A stretch of 64,000 nt of DNA. Source: Methanobacteriota archaeon. GTDB lineage: Archaea; Thermoplasmatota; Thermoplasmata; RBG-16-68-12. The DNA is taken from NCBI GenBank assembly GCA_005878525.1, contig VBMB01000135.1:39-64038 (forward strand), written 5' to 3'. Both the position numbers and the translations under genes were made by a program. Shown here piece after piece: positions 10,592-60,850 of this stretch; positions within the stretch are counted from its first letter, which is position 1, and every line of letters begins with the position of its first letter. The notes beneath the pieces were generated by a model, which did not search any database, was not told the origin of the DNA, and saw only the letters and a program-made list of their open reading frames with translations.

Positions 10592-10636
10592 CGGCTCTCT
10601 CCTGTGACTCATCTTGTGGCCTGATTCTCACGACGG

Positions 10637-10644
10637 AGCTTTTA
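10637..10644 (+). promoter_or_regulatory. Putative TATA box (TTTTATGC) for KaiC-like gene 1
   Basis: AT-rich octamer about 45 bp upstream of ATG 10686; the spacing fits an archaeal BRE/TATA element. Confidence 0.3.
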
Positions 10645-10685
10645 TGCATTATGGGCCGGGTGGTCCGGCGCTCGGCAGGCTTTCA

Positions 10686-11771
10686 ATGGATCGCGTCAAG
10701 ACGGGCGTCGTAGGTCTCGACACGATGCTGACCGGCGGCCTGCTGCCTGCGCGACCGTACGTCGTCTCGGGCCCGACCGGGAGCGGCAAGACGATTCTGG
10801 CCCTCCACTTCCTCCTCGAAGGGCTCCGACAGCAGGAACCGTGTCTTCTGGTCACCCTCGATGAGCCGCCGATCGAGGTCAAGGCGAACATGGCCACGTT
10901 CGGGTGGAACCTGGACCGTCTCAAGATCCTCGATGCGACCCCGGACATCCGCGCGCACAAACGCCAGCGGTCCGTGATCGACGTCGGCACGTCCCTCGAC
11001 GTGCGGGACATGGAGGACGTCACGGAGATCCGCCAGTCCTCCCAGATCCGCGCCCTCGAGGTCACCGTGCACAGCGTACAGAAGATGATCAAACAGGAAT
11101 TCTTGCATCACCTCGAGCGGACGAAGCAGCGATACAAGCGCGTCGTCATCGATTCGATGACCGCGCTGAAGATGTTCGCGATGCAAGGCCAGGACAGCCG
11201 AATCCTGATCCAATCGTTCGTCCGGTTCCTCGCGGAACTGGAGGCGACGACCCTCATCATCTCGGAACGCCTCAACAAGAAGATCCTCGAGACGGAGTTC
11301 TTCCTCGCACGCGGCGAGGTACGGCTCCACAAGTGGATCGACGGAAGTGTGATCCGCCGCGCGATTTCGATCGACAAGTTCCGCGGTTCCTCGTTCGACG
11401 ATCGGATGCATCCAATCTCGATCGGGGACAACGGAATGGTCGTCTACCTGGACGCCCCCGCGCAGACGCGGGTGTCGAGCCCCGCTCCGAAGCCGGGTGA
11501 ATCGCTCCTCGAGACCCGGCTCATCGACGAGGTCTCGAACGTGATTGAGTCGATCATGCGTCACATCGAAGACGCCCATCGACGCCAGGTCCCGATCCGG
11601 GACATCGAGGTGTCGTTGTCTCGAGCAATGCTCGCCTTCCAACGCCGGAACTATCAGAAGGCGATGAAGCTCGCCCTCGCGTGCGACGCGGAAGTCCGAG
11701 AGCGCCTCGCGCAGGCTCCGCCTCCGCCGCCGACCTCGCAGCTGCCGCGTCCGCCCCAGGTGATCCGCTGA
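10686..11771 (+). CDS. KaiC-like RecA-superfamily ATPase (single domain with C-terminal extension)
   Basis: N-terminal IKTG..GLD..L.GG motif (VKTGVVGLDTMLTGG) and Walker A GPTGSGKT. Start set at MDRVKTG; the ATG at 10644 is an alternative. Confidence 0.85.
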   Translation: MDRVKTGVVGLDTMLTGGLLPARPYVVSGPTGSGKTILALHFLLEGLRQQEPCLLVTLDEPPIEVKANMATFGWNLDRLKILDATPDIRAHKRQRSVIDVGTSLDVRDMEDVTEIRQSSQIRALEVTVHSVQKMIKQEFLHHLERTKQRYKRVVIDSMTALKMFAMQGQDSRILIQSFVRFLAELEATTLIISERLNKKILETEFFLARGEVRLHKWIDGSVIRRAISIDKFRGSSFDDRMHPISIGDNGMVVYLDAPAQTRVSSPAPKPGESLLETRLIDEVSNVIESIMRHIEDAHRRQVPIRDIEVSLSRAMLAFQRRNYQKAMKLALACDAEVRERLAQAPPPPPTSQLPRPPQVIR

Positions 11772-12550
11772 CCGCCGCGGCCAAGATCCGGACCGGCATC
11801 CCGGGTCTCGACAAGATGCTGCACGGCGGCTACGTCCCGGGACGGCCGTACATCGTCTCGGGTCCTCCGGGCGCCGGCAAGACGATCCTCGCGATGCAGT
11901 TCCTGCGGGAGGGCCTGGAAGGCGGGGAGCGATGCCTGTTCGTGGCCCTCGAAGAGCCCCCGAACGAGCTGAAGATCAACATGCGCGGATTCCGCTGGAA
12001 CCTGGACGACCTCGACGTCCTCGACGCGAACTCCGATATCCGACGGTTCGAGCCCACGCCGATCCTCGAGATCTCCACGGAGGAAGAGCCCGCGAAGATG
12101 CGAGCGATCGGGGAGCGGATCCGGAAGACACCGGACTTCGAGAGCAAAGAAGTCACGGTCCACTCGTTGCAGCAACTGCTGAAGAACCTGTTCCTGAAGA
12201 GAAACTACGAGCGCGTCGTGATCGATTCGATGACGGCCCTCAAATATTTCTGCATGCGCGAGTTCGAGGAGACCGTCACGACGCAGTCGTTCATGCGATA
12301 CCTCGCGGAGTCGAAGGTCACTTCGCTGCTCACCCTCGAGCTCCCGGAGGAAGGCGAAGTCCCTCCGGAGGCGTTCCTGGCGCGCGGGGAGCTCCGCCTC
12401 CACAAACTCCGGGACGAGACGGGCATCAAGCGCTTCCTGTCCGTCGAGAAGTACAAAGGCTCGTCCCACGACGAGTCCGTGTATCCGTTCGAGATCACGA
12501 ACGCCGGGATCGTGATCAACATGGCCCCGATGGCCGCGACGGCCCACTGA
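11681..12550 (+). CDS. KaiC-like RecA-superfamily ATPase, tandem paralog
   Basis: IRTGIPGLDKMLHGG, Walker A GPPGAGKT, Walker B VVIDS. Only a GTG at 11681 is available upstream of the conserved N-terminal motif, which gives a 91-bp overlap with the upstream paralog; the start is uncertain. Confidence 0.8.
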   Translation: MRRGSPRAPRAGSASAADLAAAASAPGDPLTAAAKIRTGIPGLDKMLHGGYVPGRPYIVSGPPGAGKTILAMQFLREGLEGGERCLFVALEEPPNELKINMRGFRWNLDDLDVLDANSDIRRFEPTPILEISTEEEPAKMRAIGERIRKTPDFESKEVTVHSLQQLLKNLFLKRNYERVVIDSMTALKYFCMREFEETVTTQSFMRYLAESKVTSLLTLELPEEGEVPPEAFLARGELRLHKLRDETGIKRFLSVEKYKGSSHDESVYPFEITNAGIVINMAPMAATAH

Positions 12551-12618
12551 AGCCCCTTTTCCGTGGCAGCCCTTCGGCGGATGTCAACGCGGCGTTTGTC
12601 AGACAGATGTATGACTAC

Positions 12619-12627
12619 TTTTAAATA
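12619..12627 (+). promoter_or_regulatory. TATA box TTTTAAATA upstream of ftsZ
   Basis: Canonical archaeal TATA about 55 bp upstream of the MKSLL ATG. Confidence 0.45.
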
Positions 12628-12679
12628 GGGCAAGATGGATTCGTCCGCCCGTCAGTCTCCATCGGGATGGGATGGCACA

Positions 12680-34554: not shown

Positions 34555-34729
34555 CGTGGCGCGCCGCTCCGTCGAACGGCCGAGGTCGCCATAAGGCTTG
34601 CGGAATTTCGTGACAAGGGATTCGCGACCGGCCGTCGCTCCGTTGGAGCAACGACTCAGGACTAGGTTCCGAGCCTCGTTCGAACCGGATGATGAAATGT
34701 TCAAATATCACTGGCCTCTAGGAACGGTT

Positions 34730-34798
34730 ACAAGCATCCCTCCACAACGAGGCCGTTCCCCGGTTTTCTTGAAACGGCGAACGGCCTACCCTTTTTTT
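34730..34798 (+). ncRNA. Candidate small RNA gene A: conserved 29-nt 5' block ACAAGCAUCCCUCCACAACGAGGCCGUUC, hairpin (GGCCGUUC...GAACGGCC), U7 tract
   Basis: A TATA-like AAATATCA lies about 25 bp upstream, and a hairpin plus T-tract terminator-like end follows; a paralogous unit lies 158 bp downstream. Confidence 0.4.
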
Positions 34799-34887
34799 CT
34801 TTCGCTTGCCGGATACGTCTTTCCACGGTCCGCCGAGCGACGTCGGAAAACCGTCTTATAGCATTTGTCCATTGTCAGGTCGCTTAG

Positions 34888-34943
34888 ACAAGCATCCCTC
34901 CACAACGAGGCCGTTCAGAATTCCTGGACGGCCCTTTATTTTG
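34888..34943 (+). ncRNA. Candidate small RNA gene B, paralog of unit A (identical 29-nt 5' block, divergent hairpin, T-rich end)
   Basis: A TATA-like TCTTATAGC lies about 28 bp upstream; the identical 29-mer is followed by the GGCCGTTCAGAATTCCTGGACGGCC hairpin and CTTTATTTTG. Confidence 0.4.
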
Positions 34944-34960
34944 TGGCCCATCTCGGTGGG

Positions 34961-43853: not shown

Positions 43854-44489
43854 ATGGGCCATCCTCGCGGCGTGAAGAATCTCGATGACGTCATCTCCGA
43901 GATCGAGGGCCGGTTGGACGAGAAAGACGAGGTCCGAGAGCTGACGATCAAGTCGTCCCGCACGATCGCTCGGCTGAGCGGGAGCGCGATCCAAGCGATG
44001 CACCGGGGCCAGGATGTTGGCACGGCGCTCCAGGAGACGCGCGAGGAGATCCTAAAGCTCCGGAGCCTTCTGAAGGACCATCCGGACCTGTACCACACGG
44101 GGATCGTCGAGAACGCGATGCAGGAAGCGGGCGAGGCGTTCCTCGTCCATGCGATCCTGGAACAGGATCCCCTTCCCAGTCCGAGGGACCTGGGCCTCAC
44201 CGACACCGCGTACCTCCTCGGCCTCGGAGACGTCGTCGGGGAGCTCCGCCGATTCGCACTCGAGCACCTGCGTCGCGGGGATGTGAAACTGGCGTCCGCC
44301 TTCTTGGAGAAGATGGAACGGATTCTGGACTCCCTCATGCGCTTCGACTATCCGACGGCTTTGGTCGCCCTCAAGCGCAAGCAGGACGTCGCGCGCAGCC
44401 TGATCGAGAAGACCCGCGGCGAGGTCGCTGTCGCGTCGCGGAGCCAGGAGCTCGCCGACAAACTCGACTCGGTCCGCGAGAAACTCTGA
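43854..44489 (+). CDS. Translin family protein
   Basis: All-helical 211-aa protein whose conserved helix pattern matches archaeal translin/TRAX-like proteins. Confidence 0.6.
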   Translation: MGHPRGVKNLDDVISEIEGRLDEKDEVRELTIKSSRTIARLSGSAIQAMHRGQDVGTALQETREEILKLRSLLKDHPDLYHTGIVENAMQEAGEAFLVHAILEQDPLPSPRDLGLTDTAYLLGLGDVVGELRRFALEHLRRGDVKLASAFLEKMERILDSLMRFDYPTALVALKRKQDVARSLIEKTRGEVAVASRSQELADKLDSVREKL

Positions 44490-44711
44490 AGCGCACCGGG
44501 GATGCCCGCCAGGAGGTGAAACCCGCATAATGGGTTCACTCTCGATCCGGTGACGATCGGACAGCGGATTGTCGGCGGCATTGGACCTTGCAGGACGTGC
44601 GGAGATCCATCGACATTCGGGTCTAGGCAGCCTACGACTCGAGGATCGGATGGAAATCCGAGTGTCTTCGCTTCGTGCTCAGGTCGGCGAAGAAGTCGAG
44701 TCGGCTGCTCG

Positions 44712-44756
44712 ACAAGTACCATCCACAACCGGTTGCAGAAAACGAGGCGTTCCCCG
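44712..44756 (+). repeat. Diverged third copy of the 29-nt block found in the 34730 and 34888 units
   Basis: ACAAGTACCATCCACAAC then a 12-nt insertion then ACGAGGCGTTCCCCGG, compared with ACAAGCATCCCTCCACAACGAGGCCGTTCCCCGG. Confidence 0.35.
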
Positions 44757-44823
44757 GAGACGGGAAGCAAGGCATCGTGTGCGGGCGTCGCTAAATGCGC
44801 GTCTCGCGGGCTGCAAAAAGGGT

Positions 44824-45708
44824 ATGGTTCTGATCGTGATTACGTCGAACGTGGTATCATCCGTCTTCGCCAGCCGGGAGTGCGGGCTTTTGCTTGGAGA
44901 CGCCCGAGAAGTGCTCCGAACCCTGGCTGATGATTCCGTGGACTGCACCGTCACGAGCCCGCCGTACTACAGCGGACGTCGGCACGTCGGCGACACTGTC
45001 CTCGAAATCGGAAGCGAAAAGACCGTGGAGGAATACGTTGAAGCCCTCGCGTCCGTCGGGAAAGAGTTGTACCGTGTTACAAGGCCCACGGGAAGTTACT
45101 GGCTCAATCTCGACGACAAGTGCGAACGGAAGGAATGGCTGGGAATCCCATGGCGCGTCGCATTCGCGATGCGAGAAATTGGATGGAAAATCAGAAGCGA
45201 GGTGATCTGGCACAAGCCAACGCATGTCCGTAACGCGGCCAAGGACCGACTGACTCCTGCCCACGAGCTGCTCTTCTACTTTGTGAAAAGCAAAGACGCG
45301 TACTACGACATGGATGCGATCAGAAGACCCTCATCGCCACCGATTTGGGGGAAGAATGGTGTCGTGAAAACTCGGAGGGGCAGCGTGCCGACGGATGTCT
45401 GGACCCTTCAAATCGAGGACTCCACTTCTCCTGAGAATCCCTATGCGGCGTTTCCTGAAGCATTGGTTGAACTTCCAATCCGAGCCACATGCCCCCGAGG
45501 CGGAACCGTGCTCGATCCTTTTGTCGGGAGCGGCACGACGGCAGTGGTCGCACTGAGACTCGGGAGGAAGGCCATCGGGATCGACGCCTCAGCCGATTGC
45601 CTCGAGTTCACCAAGAAACGAATCCTGGAGGTCAGGGGACAGCCCGCAACTCCTCGACAAACCCCGTTCAATCACGCCGTGAAGGTGAGCCATGGGTGCA
45701 TGCGCTGA
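44824..45708 (+). CDS. Beta-class N4-cytosine or N6-adenine DNA methyltransferase; no cognate restriction enzyme is recognisable
   Basis: Motif IV SPPY precedes motif I DPFVGSGTT. Start at MVLIVITSN. GC content and third-position usage are clearly lower than in surrounding genes. Confidence 0.8.
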   Translation: MVLIVITSNVVSSVFASRECGLLLGDAREVLRTLADDSVDCTVTSPPYYSGRRHVGDTVLEIGSEKTVEEYVEALASVGKELYRVTRPTGSYWLNLDDKCERKEWLGIPWRVAFAMREIGWKIRSEVIWHKPTHVRNAAKDRLTPAHELLFYFVKSKDAYYDMDAIRRPSSPPIWGKNGVVKTRRGSVPTDVWTLQIEDSTSPENPYAAFPEALVELPIRATCPRGGTVLDPFVGSGTTAVVALRLGRKAIGIDASADCLEFTKKRILEVRGQPATPRQTPFNHAVKVSHGCMR

Positions 45709-45832
45709 GTGCGGAGCGGAAACACGGTTCGAATGGGTCCGGCCGGATGTTTGGAAGCAGAAGATCGAACAGGTCGGACTCGAGGACATCCTCTGCTTGC
45801 GCTGTTACACCCGCCTCCATTGGTCGTAGGGC
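45692..45832 (+). CDS. Small zinc-ribbon protein (46 aa, CAECG...CLRC)
   Basis: Overlaps the methyltransferase 3' end by 17 nt. Below the ORF-track size cut-off; same low-GC islet. Confidence 0.35.
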
Positions 45833-46095
45833 GAATGGCGTGAACAATCCCGTATGGTCGCATGAGCGCGTATTTCAGAACTGCAGGCGACGGTGAAGTC
45901 ATTTGAGAGCTTTGAACTCATTCGTTGAAGCCTATGCTCTCTGCCTTGGGCTACCGCGTGCGTCTCGGTACGGTATACGTTATCAGCCTCGATTCCGGGG
46001 TCGGAATTCATTTAAAAAGCCGCAGGCATCGAATCGCGCATTCTACCCAGCGAGGGCCCGCCCTCCCGACAGAGGGACCGGCACCCAGGGGGAAC

Positions 46096-46992
46096 ATGAC
46101 CATGGCGGACATCGAGAAAGTGGCGAGCGGGATTCCCGGACTCGACGATCTCATCGAAGGCGGATTCTGGCCGAAGTCGACTGTCGTCATCCTGGGCTCG
46201 AGCGGGACGGGTAAGTCCACATTCGCGATCCAATTCCTGATGGAAGGCATCGAGCAAGGCGAGCAGGCGCTGTACGTCACCCTGGAGGAACCTCCGGAAC
46301 AGATCATGCGCGAGGCCGACCTGATGGGCTTCGACATGCGCAAGTACTACGAGAAGAGCCTCTTTTTCATCCATCTCAAAGGCCGCAATTTCAAGAAGAT
46401 GATCGAGGAGCAGCTGCCGCAACTCGTCAAGGCGCGCGCGGACTACAACATCAAGACGCGCGTCGTGATCGACCCAATGACGCCGGTCATTTGGGCGACC
46501 GCGGAGAAGCTCGAGCAACGCGAGTTGATCGGCAAGTTGTTCTACACGCTCAAGGAGCTCGGCGTCGTCCTGTGCACCGTCGAGGAGCACGCGAAGCCCG
46601 GGGAGACAATCGGCGAGGACGTGCTCCTGCCGATCTACCTGTCCGACGGCGCGATCCAGCTCGAGTACTATCCGATCGGCGGGGCGTTCAACCGGACCGT
46701 GAAACTCCTGAAGATGCGCGGCGTCCACCACGGCGAAGGCGTGTACCCGTACCTGTTCGCGCGCGGCGTGGGCATCGTGGTCCGCTCGAGTCCGACTCAG
46801 ATCCCCGAGGAGCAGAGCCGGAGCCACGTCAAGACGTTCGACGAGGCGATCAAGACCGCCGAGGCGATGAAGGCCCCTGCCCGCGTGATCGAACGGATCA
46901 AGCGGATGCAGAAGCACTGGGACTACGACTACTCGCCGGAAGAGGCCCTGCAGATCCTGTTCAGTTCGTACGGGTTGAAGCGGGGCGGATAG
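46096..46992 (+). CDS. KaiC-like RecA-superfamily ATPase with C-terminal extension
   Basis: SGIPGLDDLIEGG, Walker A GSSGTGKST, Walker B VVIDP. Start at the MTMADIEK ATG. Confidence 0.8.
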   Translation: MTMADIEKVASGIPGLDDLIEGGFWPKSTVVILGSSGTGKSTFAIQFLMEGIEQGEQALYVTLEEPPEQIMREADLMGFDMRKYYEKSLFFIHLKGRNFKKMIEEQLPQLVKARADYNIKTRVVIDPMTPVIWATAEKLEQRELIGKLFYTLKELGVVLCTVEEHAKPGETIGEDVLLPIYLSDGAIQLEYYPIGGAFNRTVKLLKMRGVHHGEGVYPYLFARGVGIVVRSSPTQIPEEQSRSHVKTFDEAIKTAEAMKAPARVIERIKRMQKHWDYDYSPEEALQILFSSYGLKRGG

Positions 46993-47781
46993 ATGCCCTA
47001 CGCGGGCCAAGTCGACAAGACGATGGGGGCCGACACGGTCGGCCACCTGAAGCATCTCTTGGAGACGGAGCTCAAGCGGGCGCGGGAGGAAAGCCACCTG
47101 GACATCGCGATGTTCCTCGGGGTGGATGGCCGGATTTTCTCCTCCTCAATCCCGAACCAGCTCGATCCCCGCGAGTACCGGCTGTTGAATCTCCTGAAGG
47201 GCAGCCTGGCGCACATCTGCAGCCAACTCAGTGGGCAGAACATGATGATGTCCGTCCAGCAGTTCGAGGCGGGCACGATCATCATCTCGGGCGTCGGAGA
47301 CCGGGCCTTCCTGGTCTTTCTCACCTCGAAACCGGTCGAGATCACGAAAATGCAAACGATCCTCGCGAACGTCATGAAGACCTCGATCGTCGTCCGCCAT
47401 CTGTTCGAATCGAAGCCGATCACCCCGGAGGTCCTCGCTTCATACGACGAAGCCGTTGCCGGAGAACTGAAGCGACTCACGCGAATCCTGTTCGTCGAGA
47501 AATTCGGGGAGACGAAGGAGTTCAAGAAGAACAAGGAGATCGCGCAATACCTTCAGTCCAAGCTTGCCGCCCTCGTGGGTCCCGGCCTGCTCCAGGAGAT
47601 CGTCACGATGGCGTACAACGAGGTCGGGACAACCGCGCCGTACATGACGTCCGCGCACTGGGAACGGTTCCTGACGATGCTGCTCGATCGTCTCCGGGAG
47701 ATCGAAGGGGACGCGGTCGCTGCGAAAGCGGAGAAGGAATGGCGCGCGCACCTGAAGCAGGTGCTCAGCTCGTTCGTGTGA
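46993..47781 (+). CDS. Roadblock/LC7-like N-terminal domain protein with alpha-helical C-terminal domain
   Basis: The DIAMFLGVDGRIFSS and AGTIIISGVGDRAFLVFLTSKP segments resemble the Roadblock/LC7 fold. Start abuts the KaiC-like stop. Confidence 0.55.
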   Translation: MPYAGQVDKTMGADTVGHLKHLLETELKRAREESHLDIAMFLGVDGRIFSSSIPNQLDPREYRLLNLLKGSLAHICSQLSGQNMMMSVQQFEAGTIIISGVGDRAFLVFLTSKPVEITKMQTILANVMKTSIVVRHLFESKPITPEVLASYDEAVAGELKRLTRILFVEKFGETKEFKKNKEIAQYLQSKLAALVGPGLLQEIVTMAYNEVGTTAPYMTSAHWERFLTMLLDRLREIEGDAVAAKAEKEWRAHLKQVLSSFV

Positions 47782-47803
47782 TGTCCATGGACGGAGGTCA
47801 CCT

Positions 47804-48424
47804 TTGATCGACGTCGCGCTCGCCTCTCTCATCGAGGACATGATCGAGAAGGCCGGGGCCGACGGCGTCGTCGAGTTCTGGCAGCGGGTCGGGGACAACC
47901 TCGCGAGCCGCATGGGGAAGGAGGCATACCTCGGGTGGACGTCGTTCAACGTCGCCGTGCGCGAGGCCCGGACGGCCTTCAGCATCGAAGGCGAGGTGAC
48001 GCCGCTCACGGACATGGCCATCACGGATGTCGACGGGGACGTGGTCGGCTACTTGTACGCGATGCGGCAGTGCTGCTACGTCCCGACGATCTTCCGCACC
48101 CGGTTCGCGGTCGGCCGGATGAGCCCGGCGGACCAGGCCGTGACGGACGAGTACAACGAGAACGTCCACAACATCGCGGTCTGCAACTTCTGCGTGTTCC
48201 ACGAGCGGTTCCGGGAGGAGATCGCGAAGAACATCTCGGTGGCCGGCAACTCGCTCGCGTGCTTCCTGCTCGCCACGCGCGGCTGGAGCGGGGAGACGAA
48301 GATCTCCTCGAAGAACGTGGCCCAGGTGAACATCAACGAGGACCACATGCGCGCCCTCCTGCGGAACTACGAATGCGTGTACGCGCTCGTCATGCGCGGG
48401 GCGCGGATCAAGGGAGAGCGCTGA
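47804..48424 (+). CDS. Conserved hypothetical Cys/His-containing protein, paralog A (possibly V4R-like)
   Basis: TTG start. Shares the LIEDMIEK.G..G.......NLASRM.KE.YL.W.SF and C.F..H.RFRE patterns with the downstream paralog. Confidence 0.5.
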   Translation: MIDVALASLIEDMIEKAGADGVVEFWQRVGDNLASRMGKEAYLGWTSFNVAVREARTAFSIEGEVTPLTDMAITDVDGDVVGYLYAMRQCCYVPTIFRTRFAVGRMSPADQAVTDEYNENVHNIAVCNFCVFHERFREEIAKNISVAGNSLACFLLATRGWSGETKISSKNVAQVNINEDHMRALLRNYECVYALVMRGARIKGER

Positions 48425-48425
48425 G

Positions 48426-49037
48426 ATGGCGTTCGAATCTCGGATCCCGGAGAGCAATCCGTTCGTCGAGATCGCGACGCACCTGTTCCTGGAGGACATC
48501 GCGACGAAGGTCGGCATCGCGGGGCTCAACAACTACCTCGTGTCCCTAGCGAAGAACCTCGCGGCCTCGATGCCGAAGGAGGAGTATGCGAGCTGGTCGG
48601 AGTTCCTCTCCGCCCTGTCGACGGGCCAGTCGATCCTCTCGACCTTCGAGGAAGTCCGTCCGATCACGGAGCACTGCATGTCCACGTTTCGGTCCCCGTT
48701 CGAGCGCGGTTGGCGGGAGTACGCGAAGCGCGTCGGGGCGTTCGCGCCGGTCCACCGGGAGGTGGCGCGATACTACAATCACAAGGTCCGGCCCACGGCC
48801 GTCACGTCGATGCACGTCGTCCTGCATACGTTCCGGGAGGCGGCAGCGGCCCGCGTCCACGTGGGCCACGACGGCGTCCGCTACGAGCCGGTCGCCTCGG
48901 CCTGGGTCGACGGGGAGGTCCAGCTCCCGGAGGGTCCAAACCTCGAGTCGCTGTTGAAGCGCGCCGGCATCTCCCGCACGAAACTCGGGATGTTGATGCG
49001 GAACCACTCGGACGTCTGGCTCATCGAGCCCGCGTGA
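48426..49037 (+). CDS. Conserved hypothetical Cys/His-containing protein, paralog B
   Basis: FLEDIATKVG..G.......NLAASMPKEEYASWSEF and VVLHTFREA match paralog A; ATG 2 bp after the paralog A stop. Confidence 0.5.
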   Translation: MAFESRIPESNPFVEIATHLFLEDIATKVGIAGLNNYLVSLAKNLAASMPKEEYASWSEFLSALSTGQSILSTFEEVRPITEHCMSTFRSPFERGWREYAKRVGAFAPVHREVARYYNHKVRPTAVTSMHVVLHTFREAAAARVHVGHDGVRYEPVASAWVDGEVQLPEGPNLESLLKRAGISRTKLGMLMRNHSDVWLIEPA

Positions 49038-59330: not shown

Positions 59331-59580
59331 CCGCGTCCCGGGGCCGGGGATCACCTCGGGTGAGCAAACAGGAAAAGCGCTAGTGTCGCCTTGGAGGGAG
59401 AGGGTTGACGACACCAGCGCAACATCGTAACCGGCGAAATGCCGGGTCCGACGTCCCTTCCAAGGGGCGGGCATATTAACGGGTTATTGTACGCTGGTGA
59501 AAGGAGAGCGGGCCACGAGCCCGCAAGCTCGAGAAGAAAGAAAAGAGAAAGGGGAAGAGGGTTGGGGGTTTGTCGGCCGC

Positions 59581-60045
59581 CTACGTCAGGGCGTGTGCGT
59601 ACAGGATTCCCTGGGAGTCGGCAATCTGCACCGCGTACCCGCTCGGGTACGTGGTCGTGCTGATCAAGACCCGGTCTCCGACGACGATGGTCGTGCCTCC
59701 GGTCCCGACGAACTGGGCCCTGTTGGTGTTCCACGAGGCCGACGTCAGGGATGCGAAGGCGGTGGGGCTGAGCGACGTCAAACCTCCCGAGGTGGTGATC
59801 GTCAGCTTAACGGCCGACGTCGTCAGGCCACTCGGTGTCGTCGTGATCAACAGCGTCCAGTTCGTTCCATCGCCGGATCTCCCGATATTGACACCCATCA
59901 CACGAGGTCCTTGACCCGTGGGCGTCAGCAGGCCGGATACCATCACGTACAGCACCGCGGCCAGCACGACCGTAATCGCGACCATCAGGATGGTCGCAAT
60001 CACGGGCGACACGGCTGCCTCATCCTTTCGGATGATGCTCTTCAT
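59581..60045 (-). CDS. Archaeal type IV pilin-like protein with class III (prepilin) signal peptide, copy A
   Basis: MKSIIRKDEAAVSPVIATILMVAITVVLAAVLYV is a class III signal with a FlaK/PibD-type cleavage context; Thr/Ser/Gly-rich mature part. The listed ORF 59581..60363 has a spurious 5' extension. Confidence 0.7.
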   Translation of the reverse strand: MKSIIRKDEAAVSPVIATILMVAITVVLAAVLYVMVSGLLTPTGQGPRVMGVNIGRSGDGTNWTLLITTTPSGLTTSAVKLTITTSGGLTSLSPTAFASLTSASWNTNRAQFVGTGGTTIVVGDRVLISTTTYPSGYAVQIADSQGILYAHALT

Positions 60046-60768
60046 GGTTCTGTCCTCCTGCGGCTTGCGCCGCCATCTCGGCACGGGGGAACCGACGCTC
60101 TTAAACGTGTCGTGGTTAATATTCGAAGTTGAGAACGAACGGATCGGGTACGCGCGGGAAATGGAAAGGAAAGAGAAAAGGGAAGAAGGTTGGGGGCTGG
60201 ATGCTGAGCCTAGCCCAGGGCGTGTGCGTACAGGATTCCCTGGGAGTCGGCGATCTGCACGCCGTACCCGCTCGGGTACGTGGTCGTGCTGATCAGGAGC
60301 CGGTCTCCGACGACGACGGTCGTGCCTCCGGTCCCGACGAACTGGGCCCTGTTGGCGTTCCACGAGGCCGACGTCAAAGACGAGAGGGCGATCGGGTTGA
60401 GCGCCGTCAGGCCGCCGGTTGTCGTGATCGTCAGCTTAACGGCCGACGTCGTCAGGCCACTCGGTGTCGTCGTGATCAACAGCGTCCAGTTCGTTCCGTC
60501 TCCAGACGTGCCGATATTGACACCCATCACACGAGGTCCTTGACCCGTGGGCGTCAGCAGGCCGGATACCATCACGTACAGCACCGCGGCCAGCACGACC
60601 GTAATCGCGACCATCAGGATGGTCGCAATCACAGGCGACACGGCTGCCTCATCCTTTCGGATGATGCTCTTCATGGTTCTGTCCTCCTGCGGCTTGCGCC
60701 GCCATCTCGGCACGGGGGAACCGACGCTCTTAAACGTGTCGTGGTTAATATTCGAAGTTGAGAACGAG
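59587..60768. repeat. Tandem direct duplication (2 x about 552 bp, 78-bp spacer) covering the pilin gene plus about 95 bp of its upstream region
   Basis: 59587..60138 versus 60216..60768 are about 95% identical, including the non-coding upstream segment. Confidence 0.7.
60210..60674 (-). CDS. Archaeal type IV pilin-like protein, copy B (about 93% identical to copy A)
   Basis: Same class III signal peptide; about 10 substitutions in the mature part. Confidence 0.7.
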   Translation of the reverse strand: MKSIIRKDEAAVSPVIATILMVAITVVLAAVLYVMVSGLLTPTGQGPRVMGVNIGTSGDGTNWTLLITTTPSGLTTSAVKLTITTTGGLTALNPIALSSLTSASWNANRAQFVGTGGTTVVVGDRLLISTTTYPSGYGVQIADSQGILYAHALG

Positions 60769-60850
60769 TTCATAAGAGCTAGCGCCGCCAGAGGAAAGTG
60801 CCTCACTGCGGAGGGCGTCCGACGCGGGCGAGACTGACGCCATCGGCGGC

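Follow-up and report, generated by a model that had tools for sequence, protein, structure and literature searches.

The full spacer between a translin-family gene and a KaiC gene, 44490–46095 (1,606 nt) in the window (the whole stretch of 64,000 nt that was analysed, from the genome of a soil archaeon of the Thermoplasmata), contains a gene for a DNA methyltransferase and, overlapping its 3′ end, a short open reading frame (ORF) for a protein with four cysteines that we call Zn45. The locus raises the question of how these two genes came to lie there and what they might do. A sequence-only reading had described the spacer as a low-GC islet of horizontally acquired DNA and had left its nature undecided between a remnant of a restriction–modification (R-M), viral or defence element and an epigenetic regulator. 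The comparisons below, all made on metagenome contigs, favour the R-M remnant and speak against a viral element and, as the gene pair has no fixed neighbour, against a regulator tied to KaiC. We consider it likely that the islet carries a horizontally acquired, solitary, R-M-derived methyltransferase plus Zn45 cassette that sits in a hotspot at the translin–KaiC junction, and this assessment includes the functions proposed for the two proteins.

The limits of the insertion are defined by relatives in which the junction is free. A metagenome scan anchored on KaiC gave 218 loci, the best 80 of which (88–100% identity) were examined; in 61 of these 80 both translin and KaiC are present on the contig. 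Here the junction is empty in 24 loci (113–285 nt), contains an unrelated insert of 600–1000 nt in 28 (several unrelated small membrane-protein ORFs where examined), harbours a 2-kb insert with a TPR-like ORF in one and carries the methyltransferase together with Zn45 in the remaining eight. The spacers of the empty sites align in full to 45976–46095 only and lack all of the sequence from the translin stop codon to ∼45976. The segment 44490–45975 is therefore inserted DNA, and the methyltransferase gene is not syntenic in all relatives. All inserts are found between the translin stop codon and GTTATCAG, directly upstream of the latter. The translin–KaiC junction is thus a hypervariable insertion hotspot. 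It shows neither a tRNA nor an integrase, neither an att-like repeat nor a target duplication, and a window-wide repeat search together with a short-word BLAST of both spacers revealed neither flanking direct or inverted repeats nor a further copy of any part of the spacers.

The mobile unit is smaller than the insert and corresponds to a two-gene cassette at ∼44753–45909. This segment is 88% identical to locus L001 (L numbers denote homologous loci), which has no neighbouring genes in common with the window, and copies of the cassette with 87–92% nucleotide identity occupy at least six unrelated contexts in the chromosomes of soil Thermoplasmata. In L001 the gene pair is surrounded by unannotated ORFs and a DUF835 gene, in L024–27 between DUF835-region genes and a MerA/MerB cluster, in L021 (as a long allele) 3′ of a Ras-like GTPase gene, and in L022/23, L009 and L013 near FAD-oxidase/BBE genes and TBP. 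L010 and L011/12 are two further separate contexts. Most of these surroundings are housekeeping chromosomal DNA with genes for ribosomal proteins, eIF2a, TBP and PurD.

Four elements of the cassette, all on the + strand, follow each other in the window. The upstream region (44753–44823) is conserved with cassette copies in unrelated contexts, and contains a TATA-like CTAAAT (44791–44796) followed by a near-invariant GCGCGTCTCGCGGG box (44797–44810) that ends ∼13 nt before the ATG. Conservation reaches to −30/−40 in all unrelated contexts and to −70/−110 in L001, L002, L010, L013 and L022, and the region probably serves as promoter/operator of an mRNA that is leaderless or has a short leader. 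It is followed by the methyltransferase gene (44824–45708), the Zn45 gene (45692–45829) and a 3′ tail (45830–45909) that is co-conserved in the unrelated context of L001, where homology stops at 45909. On the left, the cassette is preceded by a lineage-specific filler (44490–44752) that is common only to the closest relatives L008, L028, L029 and L041. This filler is an older layer of the insert; a motif in its first ∼50 nt is also found in L031, L080 and L043. The right filler (45910–45975) is specific to inserts at the KaiC site. It is common to L002/L080, L031 and L043 and is absent from L001 and from the empty sites; L043 carries a different 2-kb insert, yet has this filler. Copies at the same site in divergent lineages that include the right filler would most simply be explained by homologous recombination through the conserved flanks. 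The ancestral KaiC upstream region (45976–46095, + strand) lies outside the islet and aligns to the whole spacer of the empty sites and to all insert-bearing loci.

Over all copies, the outer limits of the cassette are ragged (left −30 to −180, right +850 to +1085), which argues against a site-specific element with defined ends. An autonomous mobile element, be it an insertion sequence (IS), a transposon, an integrative element or a miniature inverted-repeat transposable element (MITE), was considered and rejected in view of the two genes only, the ragged limits and the lack of a tRNA and of flanking repeats.

In the ORF list the methyltransferase frame extends upstream to a TTG at 44569. The best start is ATG 44824 (MGLTVITSD…), because most of the more than 100 homologue clusters begin there, whereas the sequence beyond about −70 is not conserved, and DNA conservation with other copies ends 30–110 nt upstream of it. 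The resulting 294-residue protein matches the Pfam family PF01555 (N6_N4_Mtase) with 158.7 bits (cutoff 26.7, E = 2.7e-46) over profile positions 1–219 of 221. Motif IV (TSPPY, with SPPY at residues 45–48) precedes motif I (FVGSG, residues 233–237, within DPFVGSGTT, residues 231–239), and both are invariant across the aligned homologues. This order identifies the protein as a predicted beta-class, circularly permuted enzyme, and the sequence and fold matches agree with the same assignment made in the sequence-only reading. The nearest solved structures by sequence are TTHA0409, CcrM, rotifer N4CMT and M.RsrI (E = 1.6e-19 to 1e-15, 22–27% identity). The AlphaFold model is of moderate quality (overall pLDDT 65), with a well predicted core, and Foldseek matches it to CcrM, M.BceJIV, N4CMT, TTHA0409, M.PvuII, M.MboIIA and M.RsrI (E = 2e-18 to 1e-13). 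PADLOC assigns only its generic MTase_II and orphan-MTase models, and the exact sequence of the window enzyme has no record in the contig index. A serine in motif IV goes with N4-cytosine amino-methyltransferases, and an aspartate or asparagine with N6-adenine enzymes; the product predicted from SPPY is probably N4-methylcytosine (m4C).

The window enzyme is a short allele. Long cassette alleles (P0016, P0054, P0065 and others; 343–390 residues) contain 82 additional residues in the stretch from motif VIII to motif X, the region in which beta-class enzymes carry their target-recognition domain, and the window sequence shows a clean 82-codon gap at this point. Since the distant homologues P0100 and P0108 (∼60% identity) also possess the 82-residue segment, the short allele is a derived in-frame deletion. 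Among 62 sequences with at least 80% identity, the catalytic and S-adenosylmethionine (AdoMet)-binding segments are near-invariant (entropy ∼0.1), and variation is concentrated at residues 131–140 and 168–210 and in the tail 271–294. The ratio ω of non-synonymous to synonymous divergence (dN/dS) is ∼0.15–0.4 for the methyltransferase (typically ∼0.25, well below 1), compared with 0.02–0.15 for the flanking genes. Such a pattern of variation is to be expected of an active enzyme with a fast-evolving DNA-recognition surface.

Base composition sets the islet apart from its surroundings. The GC content is 0.58 for 44490–45975 and 0.64 for the whole window, and GC at third codon positions (GC3) of the methyltransferase gene is 0.668 versus a mean of 0.832 (s.d. 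0.048) for the 59 other window genes (z = −3.4, the lowest of 60). Both values thus deviate from the window norm and bear out the low GC and A/T-richer third positions described earlier. GC3 is equally low (0.63–0.68) in every other copy of the methyltransferase, whatever the host locus, compared with ∼0.83 in host genes; the anomaly has not been ameliorated in the hosts.

Synonymous divergence provides a second view of the history of the cassette. Between very close genomes (window and L028, L080 and L002), dS is 0.013–0.058 for the flanks and 0.053 for the cassette. Between the window lineage and the L002/L080 lineage the flank dS rises to 0.6–1.07 and the cassette dS to 0.20–0.24, and for the window and L022, where the context differs, dS is 0.68 for TBP versus 0.16 for the methyltransferase. 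The cassette dS therefore reaches a plateau of ∼0.2–0.25 (maximum ∼0.27) that at large host distance is 3–4 times shallower than that of the flanks. A slow synonymous rate was rejected as the cause, as at short divergence the cassette dS equals or exceeds the flank dS. Cassettes consequently share a more recent ancestor than their hosts do. When 15 full-length copies are compared in a neighbour-joining tree, the tree is star-like (maximum p-distance 0.13), with copies from the KaiC site interleaved with copies from other sites; L040, for example, which is located at the KaiC site, is nearest to L022 and L010. One comparison that seemed to indicate an allele replacement on an identical backbone was withdrawn. 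L031 has flanking proteins that are 99% identical and a methyltransferase that is 88% identical, but its flank dS (0.2–0.4) is similar to its cassette dS (0.21) and only dN is raised. Beyond composition, the horizontal acquisition claimed in the sequence-only reading is supported by four independent lines of sequence comparison, i.e. the empty sites, the six or more contexts, the shallow dS and the interleaved tree. Taken together, dS, tree, persistent GC3 anomaly and presence/absence polymorphism make horizontal exchange the best explanation.

This bears directly on an alternative in which the enzyme is a vertically inherited, lineage-wide epigenetic regulator of expression or replication similar to Dam or CcrM, possibly acting on the KaiC operon. 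Such a role would suit a solitary enzyme with a core under purifying selection, which many members of a single archaeal clade possess (82–98% identity) and which is preceded by a near-invariant GC-rich box in its own promoter region. However, the enzyme is patchily present among genomes with 94–98% identical flanking genes, and 53 of the 61 junctions are empty or otherwise filled; the metagenome loci suggest that cassette-free strains are common and viable. The unrelated neighbourhoods reveal no specific tie to KaiC, the synonymous depth is shallow compared with that of the hosts, and the tree is incongruent with the insertion site. At short divergence the cassette dN is moreover 3–10 times that of the flanking genes, and the atypical GC3 remains unameliorated. 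We therefore regard this alternative as quite unlikely.

The origin of the horizontally spread cassette is best seen in its more distant relatives. On the contigs of P0100 and P0108, the methyltransferase gene is followed by a convergent, 3′-overlapping gene for a protein of 287–320 residues. The two archaeal versions of this protein are 53% identical to each other and resemble the endonuclease of pBspH9 (E = 5e-11 in BLASTP; E = 1e-11 in tblastn, over ∼220 residues). pBspH9 belongs to Acinetobacter sp. NEB 394, the BspHI producer strain (PMC8259958). Its methyltransferase is 45% identical to the window enzyme and adjoins a gene annotated as a NotI-family restriction endonuclease, the product of which matches the Pfam family PF12183 (NotI) with 35.6 bits (cutoff 22, E = 8e-9). 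As its ∼60% identical homologues sit convergent to a NotI-family-like endonuclease, the cassette, and with it the whole cassette clade, descends as a solitary form from a type II R-M module, the endonuclease of which is a distant relative of the NotI family.

All copies of the cassette clade that were examined have lost the endonuclease gene. Searches by tblastn with three NotI-family-related endonucleases found none in the 64-kb window or beside any cassette copy (up to 10 kb per side), and none is detected by Pfam in the flanks, in agreement with the statement in the sequence-only reading that no restriction endonuclease is present. The sole trace is an antisense similarity of 17–20 residues in the 3′ end of the methyltransferase gene (E = 0.07–0.3), where the ancestral genes overlapped. 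Complete R-M relatives, each with a long methyltransferase and a convergent NotI-family-like endonuclease, are found at L109:4373–7560 and L108:6001–9209. Those of L109 and L110 adjoin a ParB_N-domain gene and several unannotated ORFs and that of L108 adjoins an IS with an rve transposase, so that the intact system appears to travel on mobile DNA.

The ParB-like and IS genes next to these relatives also fit the idea that the islet represents the decaying remains of a virus, provirus or plasmid of archaea with an anti-restriction methyltransferase. PF01555 enzymes are common in phages and archaeal viruses, the window enzyme matches PHROG 67 (E = 1e-58) and is 35% identical to an ‘N4-cytosine methyltransferase’ of a Halorubrum tailed virus, and the L001 copy is preceded by 12 ORFs, 11 of which have no Pfam match. 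Nevertheless, no relative was found among 2.9 million IMG/VR contigs, and ten ORFs from the neighbourhoods in L001 and L024 all lack a PHROG match. The PHROG matches of the cassette itself are generic methyltransferase families (that of Zn45 is weak), most contexts are housekeeping DNA of the chromosome, and, rather than decaying, the cassette has stayed intact under selection in over 100 clusters. A viral or plasmid remnant is accordingly a distinctly improbable source compared with an R-M module that lost its endonuclease.

The second gene of this R-M-derived cassette encodes Zn45 (MGACAECG…CLRCYTRLHWS), which has 45 residues and not 46 as first stated; the overlap with the methyltransferase and the CxxC…CxxC pattern of a zinc ribbon (here CxxC-x27-CxxC) hold. 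Its ATG is positioned 17 nt inside the 3′ end of the methyltransferase gene in the +1 frame, an overlap that suggests translational coupling. Wherever Zn45 is intact (at least five contexts, with short as well as long alleles of the methyltransferase), its length and the 17-nt overlap are the same. At least 12 distinct intact alleles retain the four cysteines and the residues that flank them (CAECGAETRFEW…ICLRCY), while the middle of the chain varies. Values of ω are ∼0.17–0.35 in most pairs, although these estimates are noisy. Of 5.8 billion proteins searched, those homologous to Zn45 form only eight clusters, none of them outside this clade. No match for Zn45 was obtained in Pfam, NCBIfam or PADLOC, the sole PHROG match is weak (E = 0.05), and the predicted structure (pLDDT 77.5) has no match in the PDB at E ≤ 0.001. 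The predicted fold is a small Cys4 ribbon followed by a C-terminal helix. A function as the controller (C) protein of an R-M system was rejected, as there is no helix–turn–helix or family match, the fold is that of a Cys4 ribbon and no endonuclease gene is present.

Judging from this conservation, we regard Zn45 as a probably real, clade-specific micro-protein that is functionally linked to the methyltransferase. It is not essential for keeping the enzyme, because it is lost or disrupted in lineages that retain the latter. A role as a DNA-binding or regulatory partner seems most plausible and is the weakest link of our explanation. In several other lineages, the methyltransferase is bordered on one side or on both by a dispersed repeat of ∼150 nt that starts with a hairpin, GGGAGGAGGACC…GTCCTCCTC, and ends with CCCTCCGGGTCCGC. 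Copies are located at L022:745–900 and 1934–2090, at L009:451–606, 2645–2800 and 2838–2967, in L011–L015 and at L021:6222–6381. The window lacks this repeat, Rfam gives no match for it and covariation lends it no support; it may be MITE-like and play a part in rearrangement of the cassette.

That the methyltransferase and Zn45 form a complete new two-component system (for defence, toxin–antitoxin-like or self-mobilizing) in which Zn45 supplies sensing, targeting or inhibition is very improbable: the co-inheritance of the pair with its conserved overlap in at least five contexts, the invariant cysteines, the fixed length and the absence of Zn45 relatives outside the clade would fit, but catalysis is not plausible for a zinc ribbon of 45 residues, several lineages dispense with Zn45 yet keep the methyltransferase, a generic type II methyltransferase is all that PADLOC recognizes, no informative match came out of the structure search and nothing beyond co-inheritance speaks for it.

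The explanation that we prefer, that of an R-M-derived cassette in a hotspot, would work as follows. The methyltransferase would still methylate a short specific motif across the host chromosome, probably to m4C, without cognate cleavage. Its retention and spread would be favoured because methylation neutralizes related endonucleases, such as those of L108–L110, that may still circulate in the same soil communities. Methylation would shield the chromosome against invading R-M modules and would likewise shield donor DNA during exchange between lineages. Movement between genomes would occur by recombination, without an encoded transposase or integrase, and Zn45 would serve as an accessory DNA-binding or regulatory partner of the enzyme.

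Several observations weigh against this explanation. Zn45 is absent in L011/12 and is interrupted by the ∼150-nt repeat in L009 and L022/23, with the methyltransferase kept in each. The archaeal endonuclease candidates have no direct match to PF12183, so that their link to NotI is a transitive one, and a cognate endonuclease could be encoded elsewhere in the genome, of which the window covers 64 kb. No terminal repeats, target duplications or recombinase that would explain relocation are found at the cassette. Methylation activity, the modified base (m4C or N6-methyladenine, m6A) and the target motif are all predictions, the step from SPPY to m4C is a correlation from the literature, and the 82-residue deletion could have changed or even abolished sequence recognition. 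Finally, the dN/dS values are simple pairwise Nei–Gojobori estimates.

Two bolder extensions of the same observations may be mentioned, both of which we consider unlikely. In the first, the methyltransferase and its partner would together be a minimal ‘epigenetic passport’ that propagates itself: with the donor DNA methylated beforehand, the cassette and any DNA linked to it would survive restriction in recipients that have kept the ancestral R-M system, and Zn45 would be a new type of targeting or regulatory subunit. In the second, the translin–KaiC junction would be an archaeal exchange site, independent of an integrase, that swaps unrelated single-gene cassettes at one precise nucleotide.

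The genes around the islet are for the most part readily assigned. Upstream are genes for FolD, PurD, a glyoxalase, MsrB and the translin-like protein (43854–44489; Pfam Translin, NCBIfam PRK14562). Downstream are a single-domain KaiC gene (46096–46992, starting at ATG 46096; Pfam KaiC, E = 1.4e-44) and three ORFs without a family. The islet had been placed directly upstream of a KaiC/Roadblock operon; KaiC is indeed there, but no Roadblock domain is matched by Pfam even at E = 10. The three ORFs 3′ of KaiC (46993–49037) code for proteins of 262, 206 and 203 residues, the latter two of which are distant paralogues (24–28% identity, tblastn). KaiC and these three ORFs are strictly syntenic in the best 80 of the 218 KaiC-anchored loci. 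PADLOC returns nothing for the three ORFs and only a weak mad8 match (E = 2e-6) for KaiC itself. The KaiC upstream region, which starts with GTTATCAG, continues with an ATTCC-N6-GGAAT palindrome (45992–46007) and a TATA-like TTTAAAAAG (46011–46019); the segment 45979–46019 is conserved across all relatives and is probably the promoter of the KaiC operon with an operator.

Elsewhere in the window, a 29-mer, ACAAGCATCCCTCCACAACGAGGCCGTTC, forms a perfect direct pair (34730–34758 and 34888–34916) within one intergenic region (34705–34960). Each copy lies within or is followed by a hairpin and a T-run, and the pair could represent two small RNA genes or regulatory elements. The claim of a diverged third copy at 44712 does not stand up. 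The stretch in question (44712–44757) lies in the left filler and runs ∼5 nt into the left edge of the cassette. It aligns with the 29-mer only with a 14-nt gap, and about 2 of ∼3,870 non-self tiles score as well, so that the similarity is marginal. Scans of the whole 64-kb window for tRNAs and Rfam families found nothing. A direct repeat of 552 nt (59587–60138 and 60216–60767; 94.6% identity, spacing 629 nt) overlaps ORFs 59570–59914 (+ strand) and 60210–60806 (− strand) and has the appearance of a tandem duplication of recent date or of a repeated element. Internal direct repeats at 10614–12633 (1091-nt spacing, ∼70% identity) contain segments coding for Walker-type GxGKT motifs that resemble KaiC at 46453, which suggests a tandem or double-domain KaiC-like gene pair in this part of the window.

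If our explanation holds, the locus represents a clean and well delimited case of an R-M module decaying to a solitary methyltransferase that still spreads among uncultured soil archaea, at a hotspot that is documented in its empty, alternative and filled states. The long and short alleles, with and without Zn45, constitute a testable set for relating changes in the recognition domain to methylation specificity. No new class of system is involved: this is a well documented and fairly ordinary kind of genomic islet, to which the zinc-ribbon partner, the indel polymorphism in the recognition domain and the resolved hotspot add useful detail but no new principle. Its value lies mainly in the population genomics of archaea and in the reading of methylomes of soil Thermoplasmata.

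Compared with known systems, the junction resembles other hotspots of horizontal gene transfer flanked by core genes in that unrelated small inserts occur at an identical position next to empty sites; unlike those, it has no tRNA, integrase, att-like repeat or target duplication. Among enzymes of known structure, TTHA0409 from Thermus thermophilus (PDB entry 2zie) can be aligned with the short allele over the entire length and likewise has TSPPY. Specificity and base differ between TTHA0409, CcrM (PDB entry 6pbd), N4CMT (PDB entry 8s9m) and M.RsrI (PDB entry 1eg2), and they yield no target prediction for the window enzyme. The C proteins of R-M systems are helix–turn–helix proteins that act on endonuclease expression. 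Zn45 is similar to them, and to small archaeal zinc-finger micro-proteins, in being a small co-transcribed partner that could bind DNA and regulate its module; it differs from C proteins by its Cys4 ribbon, by the lack of a family match and by the absence of an endonuclease.

Like solitary amino-methyltransferases of other prokaryotes, the window enzyme is a stand-alone PF01555 protein, with the SPPY motif that is typical of m4C enzymes. An orphan m4C methyltransferase specific for CTAG is reported to be conserved across the class Halobacteria (PMC6471742). The window methyltransferase is different, being patchy, present at many sites and marked by signatures of horizontal transfer. Its closest counterparts are the methyltransferase–endonuclease pair of pBspH9 and the archaeal R-M systems of L108–L110, to which it is homologous over the full length with the same order of motifs and, in the long cassette alleles, the same 82-residue segment. 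Compared with these systems, the window cassette has shed the 82-residue segment and the endonuclease, and carries Zn45 on the same strand instead.

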